64,000 bases of DNA from Leucoraja ocellata (taxonomy: Eukaryota): the NCBI GenBank assembly GCA_036785375.1, contig JAWMAR010000104.1:4278001-4342000 (forward strand), given 5' to 3'. The notes below the pieces were generated by a model. It worked only from the letters and a program-made list of their open reading frames with translations, ran no database searches and had not been told where the DNA came from. Positions 30,181 to 58,508 of this stretch are shown piece by piece (the first letter of the stretch is position 1; each line of letters begins with the position of its first letter). The position numbers and the translations under genes were made by a program.

Positions 30181-30573
30181 AATGCTGTAGCCAATACCAA
30201 TAACAAAATAAATGCACCGTAGCAATTAGGGCTTCTTGTACCTCGAAAATCCAAGCGCAGTCGACAAATGCAGGAAACGCATAGTGGCTACACTATTAGA
30301 ATGTTTTCACGCAATTTACTCTTCTTTCTGATTTGAATTATACCATCTATCATTGAGCTTTTCGATCAAACTACAGCAACGTTTATTCGCAGTACTATGC
30401 GAATAAACCTCACTGACCGTGCTACCAAACATGGATTATCCCCACATTGCAACAAAAATCTAGTAATAAACGTTAGCATTCCCGATGGGGCCAGATTACA
30501 TTAAAAAAAAAAAGTCGTTTATCATGTCTGGTCAGTAGAAAAACAACTTAATATGAATACCTAATCCACTGGA

Positions 30574-30770
30574 AGGTACACAAAAATGCTGGAGAAACTC
30601 AGCGGGTGCAGCAGCATCTATGGAGCGAAGGAAATAGGCGACTGAAGAAGGGTTTCGGCCCGAAACGTCGCCTATTTCCTTCGCTCCTTAGATGCTGCTG
30701 CACCCGCTGAGTTTCTCCAGCATTTTTGTGTACCTTCGATCTTCCAGCATCTGCAGTTCCTTCTTGAACA
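30574..30770 (+). mobile_element. Inverted-repeat Penelope-type element with hammerhead motif and a 39-bp central deletion
   Basis: Long reverse-complementary arms; core at 30642-30669; imperfect 15-bp TSD, which is perfect in the 56.7 kb copy. Confidence 0.8.
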
Positions 30771-31166
30771 CATAATTCACTGGATCTGATTAATAGATCA
30801 ATGCTATAAACTTGCAATGTCGGTTTCATTCTTTTAAAGACTGGATTGCTATAGAACCGAATCATTATGATATCATGGTTTAGGTTCATCACAACAAATT
30901 AGAACTGCCCATTTGTAGACGAGCGCTTGAATCGCGTAGGCATGGAAGAAATCGATCCAAATGCTGGAAGGTGGGATTACTACCGATGAGTGCCGTTACG
31001 TCGGCCTGGTCCGAATGCACTGTTTTACATACTGTACGACTCCGAGTTTTAATTTTGTACTATCTGCCGGTTCGACTTGATATTGCAGACTTCTGTTTTA
31101 CGACAATCAATTACAAACAATTTCAAAAAGCACTTAAATAATGTTATCAACACGCTCCTAAGAATT

Positions 31167-31357
31167 GTGTAGGAAGGAAATGCAGATGCTGGTCTAAACC
31201 GAAGATAGACACAAAATGCTGGAGTAACTCAGCGGGACATGTAGCATCGCTGGAGAGAAGGAATGGGTCGAGACCCTTCTTCAGACTGACTTGTCACCCA
31301 ATCTTTCGCTCCAGAGATGCTGCCTGTCCCGCTGAGTTACCCCAGCATATTGTGTCA
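31167..31357 (-). mobile_element. Inverted-repeat Penelope-type element with 12-bp TSD (paralogue 57338-57528)
   Basis: CTCCTAAGAATT at 31155-31166 and 31358-31369; both hammerhead cores are internally deleted. Confidence 0.8.
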
Positions 31358-31687
31358 CTCCTAAGAATTAATTACAACCCCTTTCAAGGTAGCTTTGCCA
31401 ACCTACTTATTTATCTTATCACTTTAAGTTCCTGATGACTTTCAAAATTATCAGTTGCGATGCACTGCCCGAAATTACTTTCGGTATGTTTAAATTTACC
31501 TCAAGTGAACATGGTATATTTGGCAGAGCAAATCACAGTAATAGCCCTCTCAAGATTCTGACAGAATTCTATAAATTCAATACTATCAGCTTTGGCCAAT
31601 GTTTAATATTATAATAAGCTAATTGATAACATTTGTATGTTTTGGCCTCCACGGAACGCGTCCCATATGTATCTGACATGAGAGGCT

Positions 31688-43400: not shown

Positions 43401-45054
43401 ACATCATTTGACTCAAAATGCAGACATTTCATGCCATCTGTCAACTGTTGTTTATACCAGAACAGTTAAAGATAATGCAAAAGATGTTTAAAGAATGGGA
43501 TAGGTATTTGCGGGCAAGATCACGGCAGGATTTGTGGTCAGGATTGTTGGAAGCATGCGTCGGCTGCAATCGAATTTGCACTGGTTGACTAGATACAATG
43601 TTGAGTTAGTTAGGTGAGATGCAGGTCAGATGTGCTGAACGGTGACCTCCAACTGGTGACTGCATTGTGCTATCCGATATGTAGGCAGAGAATTATAAAA
43701 AAATGGTTGGCTTGAGAGAATATGATTGACCACATTTCCCCCGTACCGGCCAATCAGGAGTAGATACTATTAAAACGTGTCCAAGAGGACAATCAACATT
43801 TTCGTAGAGTGATTCATTTGCCAATTCAAGAAAAGTCTGACGTATGAAAAGAACACACGTTGGAACTAAGATATAGTACGTGCGAAGATTCACGCAGCAC
43901 CAACAATTCGTCACATGCCTGATGCATCAATTAAATCATATTCCTACATTAGTATCCAACACTTCGCTTTCACGTTTTGTTTCCTGCAGGCCTGACGCAG
44001 AGCGAGTATCATCCGTCAGAATCACCGCAATTACTGGTTCGGGCTTCACGTGCCCCAAAATACTTTGCGTAGGACAAGTGGCGAGCGCGTCGCAGGAATC
44101 AAATAGCACTATTTGTATGTTTGATCAAGAAAATGGATCAACACATTATCCCAAATATATCAACAACTGAAAATACTAAATAAACCTGTGCGTAAACTCA
44201 CAATGTTTCGCCCTTTATATGATTGGATCATCAGAGTCTGCAACGCAATATGATGACATGGTTTACATTAATCACCATTAATGCTAATTGCAGCGCCCTT
44301 TCTTTCTCCGCCTTGATATTTGAGACTTTTATTTTACGGTACGAAATGAAAATGATTTCAAAAGGCGAAGCAAAACCTTGTTACCAATACACCCTCATTA
44401 TATCTGATAGCGATTTTTTGCCCACTAAAAGCCATTAACTATGTATTTCTACAATAAATAAATATTATTATGCATTTTATGAGTATTTATAAAATAATCA
44501 GTTATTAAGTGATCGAATGCTATCCCAGGATGTTCTGAGCATCTAATATAATTTAGATAACCCTGGAAACAAGGGGAAATGATTGCACTTTCAGCGAAAA
44601 TCGTGAATTTTCTGTATGATCAAACATACAGAATTGGCTGGATCAATTCCTTCTGAATTTCCTCTTCTATGCAAGAAATTGAACCATTAATATTTATTTT
44701 GCATTGCCAAGATAGTTTATAATATTTTTCTGCACTGTTCCAGTATTAAAATGACATCATCACTTCAAAGGCGCACCAGAGGGGCAAGGTTAGTTGTAAT
44801 ATTAACTTCCACAAATCTATTTTTTTGTTCACGCAGATAATTGCACGTCAGCAAAGAAACAAATTACAATGTGGATCGGAAAGTCAGATATTTTGTGCAG
44901 GTACTTGCTTAAGACATTTCAACTGAAATCTAACTGAAATACAGGAACTGGCGGTTGTACATAAGAATGGGTCGGTATGTGGAAGCCAACTTCTCTGTCT
45001 TGGAGACAATTTTGTTTTAATATTGACGTTTTACACATTATTGTTATCACTCAC

Positions 45055-46729: not shown

Positions 46730-47691
46730 NNNNNNNNNNNNNNNNNNNNNNNNNNNNNNNNNNNNNNNNNNNNNNNNNNNNNNNNNNNNNNNNNNNNNNN
46801 NNNNNNNNNNNNNNNNNNNNNNNNNNNNNNNNNNNNNNNNNNNNNNNNNNNNNNNNNNNNNNNNNNNNNNNNNNNNNNNNNNNNNNNNNNNNNNNNNNNN
46901 NNNNNNNNNNNNNNNNNNNNNNNNNNNNNTCTAAAAATCAGCGTCTAAAAGAATGGACAAGGAAACTCTCATCATCTTTAAAACCTAGTTGGACGTGTAC
47001 TTGAGGCGCAGCTGCTCGCTGCGGACCTCGTGCTGGAAGGAAGAATAGGCTGGGGTGTACTATTTTGTGAACACTGCCTCCTTCAGGCAAATAGCTTCCA
47101 TCGGTATCCTAAATGTACTACCTTTCTCTGTTTGCTGGACCAGGCGAAAGGCAACGCCCAAAGTCACTTTCAATGCTTCAAACAATAAAAGGGTTCATTT
47201 TCCTTGGCGCAATACAATACAATACAAGCAATAAGACAACCATTGCGGAAATACATTGTCCTATGGTTTAAAAATGTATAGGCAATTGGTGGACACATAA
47301 TACGTTTTCCCATTATTTCTGATGCGAGGTATGACAAAATGTAAATGTTGTGGGCTTTCCTCAGTCTTATTATTCTCATCAATTATTGTATTATGCAGCA
47401 GCTACCGCTCCAGCATCAATTTTACAAACATTGGCTTATAACATATACATAAACAAGATGGAAACAAAAATCCGGTGGGATCATCTCCCAACGATTTATC
47501 TTATTCTGCTCATGAATGTCATGAAACTTTAATTTAAATTGTGGGTAATTTTAATCAAAAAATCCGATTAAAATGGAAAATTATTAACACATGAAACAGA
47601 TACACGAGGAATTGGACCTGCATGAAGCATCTAATTTCATGGAGCTTTTTATTATACCAGTGACAAGTTATATGTGCTCTACAACACTCAC

Positions 47692-50144
47692 CATGTTCGT
47701 CGAACTGCTCCTTGGCTTTGTACTGTCCGTTGGCGCATATTTAGCGTACTTTTCAATGGTCCCGTGCATCTGTGGACTGAATGGAGTGAAATATATATCC
47801 CGTGGTTCGGGCGCCGATCGAATTTTATAACGGTATGTTTCTGAAAGGGATCCATTTCCATGAACCTCAAGTAGACTGGGAAGGAAGTGAGAATCCGGCA
47901 CGATTTGTAAGTTCACATTCGAATGCCTATATTCCAACTCTCTTCTGCAGCAACTGTCTGCTAAAGTGCAGGCATTTCCAGATGCAGAATGGCTGCCCAT
48001 TGGGCAAATAACTACAACAAGTGCAATTATAACCACCAAAAGAACAAACGAGGTTGCTCCTAGTGTAATTATTATATATAATGATAAGTTCTGCGTGTCT
48101 TCTAGGTCGCCACGCGCTTCATTGAAGTCCAGCAAACCCTCCGTGTGTTCCTCAACTATTGTCAAAGTAAAGGTGGTGGTAGCGGAGAGAGCGGGATAAC
48201 CGTTATCTTTCACCTGGATAATCAGCCTTTGTGTGGTGGCGTCGCTATCTTTAATGCGCCGAGCAGTTCTTACCTCTCCTGAGTTATATGAAACTATAAA
48301 GAGACCCGGGTCACTGGATTGCATCAGTTGATAAGACAGTTGTGCATTCTTACCGGAATCTGCGTCGGAAGCAAGGACCTTTGTTACCATATATCCCGGG
48401 TCTGCAGAACGAGGCACAGGCAGACTGCTGTTGCTTTTTATTGCATTTGCTGTTATTATGGGTGGATTATCGTTCTGATCCAAGACAATCACTTTCACAG
48501 CAACGTCACTGGAAAGTGATGTTAATCCGGCATCTTGAGCCCGAACGTGAAACTGAAAACCTTTAAATTGTTCATAATCGAAAGGAGTTTTCGAGTAGAT
48601 GCTGCCATTGTTTGAGTTGATAAAGAGGTAGAAAGACACAGGCACTGACTGTATCTGGTTCTCCAAAATAGAGTAAGAAAGCTGTGAATTTCGGTCAATA
48701 TCAAGATCCAAAGCTGTTACTGATCCAATGTAGCTGCCTGGCTCATTATTTTCCGCCACATATGCCGTGTACGAAGGCTGCGTAAAGCGCGGCGCGTTAT
48801 CATTAATATCTGAGATATTTACTACAATCATCCGGCTGGTAGATAACGGGGGACTCCACGGTCTTTGCAAGTAACTGTAATCTTATGATGAGGGGCGCTT
48901 TCTCGATCGAGTGCTGCATTTGTAACTAGTCTGTAGGAATTTGTGAAGGAAGATTTAAGATTAAAGAGTAGATTGGGTGAGATAGAACAGTCGATGAGTC
49001 CATTTTGATTGGAATCCCTGTCTGTCACACTGATCAATGCGATCAACGTTCCACTTGGAACATTTTCACTGACTGTACCGGAAACAGAATTCAGAGTTAT
49101 ATCAGGAGCGTTGTCATTCACATCTGTGATATCCACCCGCACATTGCAGAGTGTGGATAACGATTGCACACTTTTGTCCTTAGCTTGTACATAAATCTGA
49201 TAAATATTGTTTTCTTCAAAATCCATAATTCCTTTGGTACGTATCTCCCCGGATTTGTGGTTAATCGTAAACATTTCAGTTATCCTTTGTTCATTGTAAC
49301 TGCTGAAAGAATAAACGATTTCGCCATTTGTGCCCTCGTCCAGGTCAGTCGCGTTAAGCTTAATCACCAAGGAATTTCGTGATACGTTCTCCTTTAGGCT
49401 AACAGTATACGCCGATTTCTCGAAAACCGGTGTATTATCATTAACGTCCAAAACAACAATAGTTACATGAGCCGTACCTGACCTCCCTGGAGTACCACCA
49501 TCAAGAGCGGTCAGTAATAAACTGTACACTGGTTGTTTTTCTCGGTCGAGAATATTCTGCAGCACCAGTTCTGGTAACTTCAATTTTCCAAAATTCTGCA
49601 CGTCCAACGTAAAATGATCATTAGCAGCGAGCTGGTAGTTACGAACAGAATTATTTCTCCCGTCCATATCGTGAGCGCCTTCTAACAGAAAACGCGCTCC
49701 TGGCATCGTGGTTTCTGAAATTTCCAACCGAATTTCACTTTTCGGAAAATTCGGAGAATTATCGTTTGTATCCAATATCTCAACTTCCACACGGTACTGC
49801 TCCACAGGACTTTCAACCACAGATTCCACGAGCAATACACAGTTATCACTCTGACCACACAGTTGTTCCCTGTCGATTCTTGCACTTACAAATAAAATTC
49901 CATTCTTATTATTTACATCCAAATATTGTTTTGATGCAGCTGATATAATTCTGAACTTACGGCTTGATAGCTCCTCTATGCTCAAACCCAAATCTTTTCC
50001 GATTGCTCCGACGAAGGCACCTTGTTCCAGTTCTTCTGGAATGGAGTAGCGAATCTGCCCGGAAACCAGATTCCACACACAAAGCAGAAAGATGGATGAT
50101 ATCACCGACTTTCCATGCACGCGGAAAATGTTCATTTGTGCCAT
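47692..50144 (-). pseudogene. Clustered protocadherin variable exon, subtype A copy 4, with a single 1-bp frameshift (pseudogene or sequencing error)
   Basis: Split across ORFs 48828..50342 and 47668..48870; 2453 bp versus 2454 bp in A1-A3; G5 at 48848-48852 where A3 has G6. Promoter, ATG (50144) and donor (47692/47691) are intact. Confidence 0.75.
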
Positions 50145-50288
50145 TACTGCTATGGGGTGGATCACAAATACCTTAACAATGTTTCTTCTTGAAAGCATCC
50201 CGGCCCACATCCGAACCAATTCCTTCAATGTGTTGAATAAGTTGAAGTGTGATCGGATGAAGAGATGGTCCGCTGCGTTCGTACACAC

Positions 50289-50412
50289 GCCGCCATTATT
50301 CAGCTTCCTCTCTCGTATATTGGGGGATGGGCGGTGGATCACTAGGTGGTTTTCACCTCCTTATTGGTAGACAGCGACACAAAGAGTCTCAGCCTATAAT
50401 TGCACTGAGAAT
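50289..50412 (-). promoter_or_regulatory. Variable-exon promoter A4 (CSE block)
   Basis: Near-identical copy; CSE at 50363-50404. Confidence 0.85.
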
Positions 50413-56400: not shown

Positions 56401-56705
56401 AATACAGGAAACGCATAGTAGCTACACCATTAGAATGTTTTCACGCAATTTACTCTTCTTTCTGATTTGAATTATACCAACTATCATTGAGCTTTTCGAT
56501 CAAACTACAGCAACGTTTATTCGCAGTACTATGCGAATAAACCTCACTGACCGTGCTACCAAACATGGATTATCCCCACATTGCAACAACAATCTAGTAA
56601 TAAACGTTAGCATTCCCGATGGGGCCAGATTACATTTAAAAAAAAGTCGTTTATCGTGTCTGGTCAGTAGAAAAACCACTTAATATGAATACCTAATCCA
56701 CTGGA

Positions 56706-56940
56706 AGGTACACAAAAATGCTGGAGAAACTCAGCGGGTGCAGCAGCATCTATGGAGCGAAGGAAATGGGCGACGTTTCGGGCCGAACCCCTTCTTCATT
56801 CTGATATTCAGTCTGAAGAAGGGTTTCGGCTCGAAACGTCGCCTATTTCCTTCGCTCCATAGATGCTGCTGCACCCCCTGAGTTTCTCCAGCATTTTTGT
56901 GTACCTTCGATCTTCCAGCATCTGCAGTTCCTTCTTGAAC
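56706..56940 (+). mobile_element. Complete inverted-repeat Penelope-type short element with perfect 15-bp TSD
   Basis: ACCTAATCCACTGGA at 56691-56705 and 56941-56955; ~95 bp inverted arms; hammerhead core at 56813-56840. Confidence 0.85.
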
Positions 56941-58508
56941 ACCTAATCCACTGGATCTGATTAATAGATCAATGCTATAAACTTGCAATGTCGGTTTCAT
57001 TCTTTTAAACACTGGATTGCTATAGAACAGAATCATTATGATATCATGGTTTAGGTTCATCACAACAAATTAGAACTGCCCATTTGTAGACGAGCGCTTC
57101 AATCGCGTAGGCATGGAAGAAATCGATCCAAATGCTGGAAGGTGGGATTACTACCGATGAGTGCCGATACGTCGGTCTGGTCCGAATGCACTGTTTTACA
57201 TACTGTACGACTCCAAGTTTTAATTTTGTACTATCTGCCGGTTCGACCTGATATTACAGACTTCCGTTTTACGACAATCAATTACAAACAATTTCAAAAA
57301 GCACTTAAATAATGTTATCAACACGCTCCTAAGAATTGTATAGAAAGGAAATGCAGACGCTGGTCTAAACCGAAGAAATACACAAAATGCTGGAGTAACT
57401 CAGCGGGACAGGTAGCATCGCTGGAGAGAAGGAATGCGTCGAGACCCTTCTTCAGACTGACTTGTCACCCAATCCTTCGCTCCAGAGATGCTGCCTGTCC
57501 CGTTGAGTTACTCCAGCATGTTGTGTCACTCCTAAGAATTAATTACAACCCCTTTCAAGGTAGCTTTGCCAACTTACTTATTTATCTTATCACTTTAAGT
57601 TCCTGATGACTTTCAAAATTATCAGTTGCGATGCACTGCCGGAAACTACTTCCGGGATGTTTAAATTTACCTCAAGTGAACATGGAATATTTAGCAGAGC
57701 AAATCACAGTAATAGCCCTCTCAAGATTCTGACAAAATTCTATAAATTCAATACTATCAGCTTTGGCCAATGTTTAATATTATAATAAGCTAATTGATAA
57801 CATTTGTATGTTTTGGCCTCCACGGAACGCGTCCAATATGTATCTGACATGAGAGGCTGTCTGAAAATGTGTCTCGACCCGAAACGTCACACATTCCTTC
57901 TCTCCAGAGATGCTGCCTGGCCCACTGAGTTACCCCATCATTTTGTGTTTATCTTCGGTTTTTCCATTAGATAGGGCACACTGATTCTTCTCTACCTCAT
58001 TGCGGATATTGGACTTTTCCTCTGGACTTGATACTCTACAATGCTGAGAACTATATTCTACACTCTTTATCATTCTCTTCGCGCTACCTATTGTATTTGG
58101 ATTTGACTTGGATATATTTATGTAAATATTATCTCCTTTGATTGGATAAAATGCAAATCCTCGCTTTTCACCTCGGTACTCGTACAAATAAACCTTAATC
58201 TACACAATCGAAATAATGCCGAATGCATGAGAATGGTGGAAACAGGTTCAACGTTCAGCCGTTCACTTAGTTTTCATCATCCAGTTAATTAAAGAGCAAC
58301 AAATTAGACAACAACGCAATGAGTAAACACGCAAATCAGCGACTCTGACCACAGATTCGCGAAAGAAATATGAAGTGGTACAAAGAGAAGGGGAAATGCA
58401 GGAAATGGGCATCATTGCAATAGAAGGTCGGCATTTGAAATCTAAACCTGTCTTACTCTGAGATGTAGATGTAAAATCTGCGCGATACATTTTCGTCACA
58501 TGACTCAC

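Follow-up and report, generated by a model that had tools for sequence, protein, structure and literature searches.

Positions 56691 to 56955 of the window (the whole 64,000-nucleotide stretch of Leucoraja ocellata DNA analysed here) hold a short fold-back sequence that carries a hammerhead ribozyme motif and is bounded by a perfect direct repeat. The locus raises the question of whether such a sequence is a mobile unit of its own or a remnant of a larger element, and of how its two arms came to stand head to head. The analysis indicates that the insert is almost certainly a stub of a common Penelope-like element (PLE), whose pLTR forms the arm. It is, in our opinion, a head-to-head pair of pLTRs that was quite probably built afresh by both cut strands priming on the RNA of the element, with a ribozyme that is likely dead.

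Structure of the insert and its surroundings

The sequence-only reading described a 235-bp insert, made of a partial inverted arm and a full arm, between perfect 15-bp target-site duplications (TSDs), and this description is accurate. The 15-mers at 56691..56705 and 56941..56955 of the plus strand are identical. The last 2 nt of the left TSD and the first 2 nt of the right one also match the element, whose long end normally runs two letters further, so that 2 nt of each TSD are common to both. The inverted short arm, a pLTR copy on the minus strand (56706..56805), begins at the short (proximal) end and stops ~6 nt ahead of the hammerhead core, which is altered in this arm at C3 and 2.1. It is separated by a 2-nt seam spacer (56806..56807) from the direct long arm, a pLTR copy on the plus strand (56808..56942) that starts 5 nt ahead of the core and finishes at the long (distal) end. 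The stretch between the short and long ends, present in one arm only (56907..56942, plus strand), is the ~34-nt “tail” (PMC8557442; PMC11167929). The claimed hammerhead core lies at 56813..56840 of the plus strand, where direct reading gives CTGAAGA-A-(12 nt)-GAAA-C-GTC, that is, the core, an extra A, a 4-bp stem II with a 4-nt loop, GAAA, the palindromic 15.1-16.1, and GUC. The whole 235-bp insert folds into a single hairpin of ~100 bp (−187 kcal/mol; z −26.6 vs 200 shuffles).

About six independent insertions of the family had been counted in the window, and six remain once the paralogs created by segmental duplication are merged: 7101/16425/25826/51879, 8152/17135/26816/52917, 30559/56691, 31173/57345, 31688/57859, and 42087. 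The relative with a 12-bp TSD is also confirmed, the duplication at 31155-31166 and 31358-31369 flanking a copy that starts at 31167. This independent fold-back (31155..31369, minus strand) belongs to another subfamily, has a paralog near 57345-57526, and lacks an intact hammerhead core in either arm. The paralog of the 56691 insertion, at about 30539..30764 (+/-20) on the plus strand, lies in a 9.4-kb segmental duplication. Its TSD has decayed and 39 bp are absent at the hairpin centre; the loss is clean and the paralogs are 97% alike overall, which suggests that the centre of the palindrome may be unstable.

Most of the window (2901-61022, minus strand) is a tandem array of single-exon cadherin-repeat ORFs of ~900 aa, which we take to be protocadherin variable exons. 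The array sits in recent segmental duplications of 90-97% identity, and one copy (47668-50360) is broken by a frameshift. The insert at 56691..56955 is a passive repeat between these protocadherin-like exons. A lone CTGATGA...GAAAC-ATT motif at 44191-44234 of the minus strand, outside the family and with no clean stem II, is probably a chance occurrence.

The parent element

The Penelope origin proposed from sequence holds: the arm is the pLTR of an element that encodes reverse transcriptase (RT) and a GIY-YIG endonuclease. This parent is a PLE of ~4 kb, present in the same genome with an intact RT/GIY-YIG ORF of 1,230 aa (counted from the first Met at locus L292). Among the 20 loci fetched after a search with an N-terminal piece, L292-L295 have the order arm-ORF-arm with intact ORFs; at L293 (G000:C1:8663000-8672999) three arms lie 3,985 bp apart, forming a tandem unit. 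The ORF contains DKG, the RT motif YIDD, a CX4CXXC linker (at residue 1121 of the L292 frame), and GIY-YIG-type motifs. Pfam matches to the L292 ORF are RVT_1 (E 1.9e-6) and GIY-YIG (E 0.013), both below the curated cut-offs. The ATG at L292 lies 34 nt behind the long end of the arm; counted from C3, the distance to the first ATG is 164 nt. The N-terminal part is unusually long, with proline-rich repeats. Because many copies keep open frames of 800-1,250 aa, the parent is probably still active or was so recently.

The long arm of the insert matches the L292 arm in 126 of 136 columns (93% identity) and endonuclease-linked copies at 97-99% identity. The link between arm and endonuclease first appeared at several of 20 weaker GIY-YIG matches, where the arm lies just past the stop codon; RT motifs are found upstream in the same copies. 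The top 20 GIY-YIG loci were rejected as parents, being members of a different PLE family without this arm. A genome search with a C-terminal endonuclease piece gave 168,152 candidates, and at 27 of the 30 loci inspected the arm follows the endonuclease stop by 90-115 nt on the same strand (a count that includes three duplicate pairs and one match to the tail only). Conversely, among the best 30 relatives of the long arm (the insert included, some entries being duplicates), 18 have endonuclease sequence at most 900 bp upstream, 2 inverted; the other 12 comprise 3 with a pyrimidine-rich 3' UTR, 5 solo arms, and 4 fold-backs. The claim of a non-autonomous ribozyme-bearing family is therefore not supported, since an intact autonomous element has this arm as its pLTR and 18 of the arm's 30 closest relatives retain the endonuclease.

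The insert is also one of a graded series. The same layout, namely a short inverted arm, a long arm with the 34-nt tail, and a TSD, is found throughout a size range from 170 bp to 2.6 kb. It recurs, with separate TSDs, in copies of ~2.6 kb (L242), ~2.0 kb (L260), and ~1.5 kb (L259), while L227 and L220 are shorter than the 235-bp insert.

A second PLE family, with 759-aa frames and many near-identical tandem copies, was encountered at L031-L050 (e.g., L034 and L043:2997-3040). It has a hammerhead-like core with a different, fully pairing stem II and a longer insert after GAAA.

Copies across the genome

A search of the same genome (3.44 Gb) gave 5,960 candidates, of which 40 were scored. The 30 loci inspected include 14 with one common flank and 2 with another, so that they represent 16 independent insertions; exact direct repeats of 12-18 bp are present at 13 of these 16. 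The claim of long, variable TSDs that do not suit a MITE is thus upheld: the lengths range over 12-18 bp across independent loci, with no fixed value. The arms of the 16 are near-identical and their seams differ; a rare variant in one arm often recurs in the other arm of that copy. The shared flank of L004-L008, L011, L014, L015, L019, L021-L024, and L030 marks one fold-back amplified at least 14 times within another repeat, mostly on short contigs.

A blind sample of 80 stretches of 10 kb each from the 78 largest contigs (800 kb) contains 340 profile matches covering 47.5 kb. Scaled up to the genome, this would come to roughly 1.5 million arms and 275,000 fold-backs. Neighbouring arms are mostly head to head (64 pairs, vs 3 tail to tail and 13 in tandem). 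The 3' ends are bimodal, with the two groups ~30-34 nt apart, and the 53 classifiable head-to-head pairs (11 were not) divide into 37 long+short, 9 short+short, and 7 long+long (p 0.003). At the other end, 147 non-redundant copies with a core were compared: in 108 of them similarity ceases 2-5 nt ahead of C3, and the remaining 39 continue into 3' UTR. Likewise, 121 of 304 matches with an intact 3' part begin at model positions 585-599, and 3 begin at the cleavage position. Arm identity averages 0.85 within pairs vs 0.76 between pairs, although the one best match of an arm is its own partner in only 8 of the 51 pairs that could be measured. A TSD of at least 10 bp accompanies 16 of the 64 older blind pairs (one of them element-internal) vs 2 of 400 control pairs, the rest having decayed or escaped detection.

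At the L182-L211 junctions, TSD ends often overlap the ends of the element by 1-5 nt. The overlap may hint at short primer-template pairing, whereas the in vitro study of a PLE reports no homology (PMC11167929).

Origin of the fold-back arrangement

The seam between the arms bears on whether the insert was copied as a unit or made anew. With two positions left open, the insert's own seam has one match in the genome. The commonest symmetric seam has 548 exact matches (control 0), of which 30, taken from the start of the contig order and each with a flank of its own, were inspected. These comprise 22 long+short pairs, 1 short+short, no long+long, and 7 unclassifiable ones (p 3e-6), with repeats of at least 12 bp at 25 of the 30 loci (one mismatch and junction overlap allowed). 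The two arms agree on the GUC/GUU variant in 28 of the 30 copies. Relative to the tail, the asymmetric base at the centre points one way in 11 copies and the other way in 11, and both orientations occur in both crude subfamily classes. An unbiased centre argues against a master copy and against the snap-back of a long cDNA, as both predict a fixed orientation. The single seam of the insert and the lack of a fixed orientation in the commonest one speak further against the claimed non-autonomous family, and the data fit assembly of the insert at landing, from two target-primed cDNAs. It should be noted that palindrome centres may change after insertion, as in the 30559 paralog, so that part of the seam diversity, as well as the 11:11 ratio (by flipping of the loop between the arms), could be secondary, and that 16 of the 53 classifiable older blind pairs run against the long+short rule.

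We regard two-strand priming as the probable route of fold-back formation. The PLE protein would make staggered nicks 12-15 nt apart in the two strands, and the strands would prime at different start sites, one distal and one proximal. Where synthesis begins in the 5' pLTR, it would run off the 5' end of the RNA just before the core and give cDNAs of ~100 and ~135 nt. The 3' ends of the two cDNAs would then be united, in many cases through pairing of the short palindrome at the edge of the core; the 9-nt near-palindrome of the parent would anneal with one central mismatch, to be repaired either way. Alternatively, a few letters would be added at the joint, as in the 56691..56955 insert. Gap filling would finally yield the TSD.

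The letters before the core resemble the initiator consensus. An internal promoter has been reported within the pLTR of Drosophila Penelope (PMC2377424), and the Adineta pLTR has an initiator-like motif (PMC3846280). No excess of a cap-derived G was found at the 5' ends (7 G among 20 non-C letters). Two other accounts of these ends were considered. A splice acceptor, formed by the pyrimidine tract and CAG before the core, was set aside as less probable: no upstream exon recurs, and up to 5-6 genomic letters are retained in seams. Stalling of RT at the C-rich tract seems less probable as well, for the ends lie 2-5 nt before the core and do not reach the tract. With regard to priming itself, both target strands are nicked and extended in vitro by an anole PLE, from two internal start sites that bound the tail, and the protein of this relative is a predicted dimer (PMC11167929).

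A more general proposition, that PLEs insert by obligatory two-strand priming, seems to us evenly poised. The halves of a protein dimer would each start one cDNA, one per start site, on a single RNA, which would leave a one-sided tail; the hammerhead would mark the 5' edge of the RNA and its palindromic border would act as an annealing handle, with cleavage unneeded.

The strongest competitor of two-strand priming is self-priming, in which a single cDNA snaps back at the palindrome, after which the endonuclease trims or resolves the copy-back strand at the short site. This explanation has been published for head-to-head PLE junctions with palindromes (PMC3846280), and it accommodates the abundance of perfectly symmetric seams, the variants shared between arms, and the near-constant long+short composition (22 of 23 classifiable copies). 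We nevertheless consider it unlikely here. The fixed centre orientation that it predicts is not seen, and seams with unequal arms or added letters are not simple hairpins. Moreover, among all blind matches short ends are as frequent as long ones, which makes the short site a start site in its own right, as shown in vitro (PMC11167929).

A considerably less probable explanation is that the insert belongs to a non-autonomous fold-back family, transcribed and moved as a unit by a PLE protein. The exact recurrence of one seam would suit such a family, and a sample of 30 copies could miss a few amplifying masters; pLTR sequences are able to move cargo in trans (PMC3846280), and non-autonomous PLE derivatives are known (PMC8557442; bioRxiv 10.64898/2026.07.22.740005). 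The seam of the insert is, however, unique in the genome, while the recurrent seam coincides with a palindrome native to the parent and takes both orientations in both subfamily classes. The size series is continuous up to full length, and the 14 near-identical top matches, with their common flank, were amplified inside another repeat.

The hammerhead motif and its activity

The features ascribed to the motif from sequence are all present: a minimal hammerhead of type I in which A9 is followed by an extra nucleotide and 15.2-16.2 is palindromic, matching the features of PMC4209133, a weak stem I (2 bp), and a fold-back predicted to bury the core (the pairing probability of stem II is 0.0 in the insert, on both strands). 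The motif is not due to chance. A minimal-hammerhead descriptor gives 29 parses (26 distinct sites) in the 800-kb blind sample; the reversed sequence gives 0, and five shuffles give 0, 1, 0, 0, and 0. An Rfam scan of the 64-kb window returned no hammerhead family at E<=5, with only sub-threshold miRNA and snoRNA matches. In an alignment of 275 arms, no letters outside CpG sites are more constant than those of the core, and subfamily lines differ in loop II. The proposed check on covariation of stem II showed its closing pair to vary on one side only: here, as in the first pair of stem I, U-A alternates with U-G, and no two-sided change in the stems was found among the 275 arms.

The pairing probability of stem II is at most 0.03 in five single-arm contexts of 100 nt and reaches 0.93 in isolated 40-mers. 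The cut-site triplet is GUU in the four intact parents inspected. In the arms of L100, L213, and L215, the 4 nt upstream of the core repeatedly pair with 4 nt ~20 nt past the cut site, a pairing that may lengthen stem I distally and that copies truncated at the 5' end would lack. We judge the ribozyme of this copy likely to be inert. In the family at large, the hammerhead likely rides along within the pLTR, without its cleavage setting the ends of copies. An anole PLE hammerhead cleaves only with protein, and insertion in vitro proceeds without cleavage (PMC11167929).

RNA reads from two related organisms, placed on L063 and L292, cover the arm on both strands, and most run into unlike sequence; the 5' part of the ORF is covered at a depth of about 1-20. 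In these fragmented libraries of related organisms, no pile-up of molecule starts or ends was found, including at the cut site and the inferred 5' end. The pattern fits read-through of copies embedded in host transcripts. Dimer cleavage of PLE hammerheads is reportedly described in a 2017 paper.

It is therefore highly improbable, in our estimate, that an active dimeric hammerhead drives the processing, circularisation, and spread of short units, as in retrozymes. The core letters are indeed the best conserved across subfamilies, tandem parent copies do exist (as at L293), and PLE minimal hammerheads have low dimer activity in vitro (PMC4209133) as well as protein-assisted activity (PMC11167929). 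Yet hardly any 5' ends fall at the cut site, short units are mostly solo or head to head rather than tandem, stem II scarcely pairs in its natural contexts, and the 2-bp stem I and the GUU of the parents likewise count against it. Finally, the long inverted arms, the missing ORF, and the TSD could recall a MITE of a DNA transposon, an explanation with a practically negligible chance of being right, as the arms are not terminal on both sides (the tail being one-sided), the TSDs are long and variable, and the parent is an RT element.

Relation to known systems

In L1 twin priming, both target strands prime cDNA and joining at microhomology leaves an inversion inside the TSD. The route proposed here differs in that both primers would start near the same end, which is why the arms duplicate each other.

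Insertions of EN+ PLEs (Adineta Pen2a_Av, PMC3846280; PMC8557442) resemble the insert in having an inverted, 5'-truncated copy at the 5' end, a one-sided tail of 30-40 bp, a palindrome at the inverted junction, and a variable TSD. They differ in that the direct copy of our insert is reduced to the pLTR alone, the TSDs here measure 12-15 bp or more vs 8-10 bp, and stubs here number, by extrapolation, ~10^5 per genome. As for the parent, its C-terminal GIY-YIG with two internal cysteines, CX2-5CXXC linker, and DKG recall Neptune/Nematis-type PLEs (PMC8557442). Unlike those elements, the parent has a long ORF (1,230 aa), in which the RT is preceded by a proline-rich stretch of low complexity.

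Metazoan PLE minimal hammerheads share with the insert the type I core, the extra nucleotide between 9 and 10.1, G10.1-C11.1, the palindromic 15.2-16.2, and the location in the pLTR (PMC4209133). Stem II and stem I measure 4 and 2 bp here, vs 7-8 and 4-5 bp in Schistosoma; the D. virilis PLE hammerhead has a 2-bp helix I, as here (PMC4209133). The anole Poseidon PAc (PMC11167929) agrees with the parent in that the tail is delimited by two internal RT start sites, which lie about 95-135 nt past the hammerhead, and in having an AC-rich end. The PAc ORF starts in stem II, whereas the first ATG of the parent lies well downstream of C3; inverted products and TSDs are not treated in the passages of that study that were searched. 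Non-LTR retrozymes (bioRxiv 10.64898/2026.07.22.740005) are, like the insert, short, non-coding, hammerhead-bearing, and related to PLE pLTRs. They are, as described there, head-to-tail tandem units with a hammerhead in each, whereas the insert is a head-to-head pair.

Significance

Inverted pLTRs, one-sided tails, junction palindromes, TSDs, and minimal hammerheads have all been published for PLEs (PMC3846280; PMC8557442; PMC8969392; PMC4209133). A literature search found no description of this family from a shark or skate, although the species lists of PMC4209133 and PMC8557442 may include it, and no account of two-strand or twin priming for PLE fold-backs. The later steps of the PLE insertion cycle are stated to be unvalidated (PMC11167929). 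The insert is thus an ordinary object and a useful mechanistic clue.

For annotation, such stubs (~340 arms per 800 kb) are to be read as PLE ends and not as MITEs, miRNA precursors (as the Rfam near-matches could suggest), or new ribozyme elements. The value of the insert lies in its being a record of how PLEs insert. The long+short rule (22 of 23), taken together with the 11:11 centre, provides a genomic test of two-strand priming against the published self-priming, and the intact 4-kb parents offer a substrate for a bench test of the priming route. The genome keeps ~10^5 minimal products that would record each step of insertion, together with an intact young parent.
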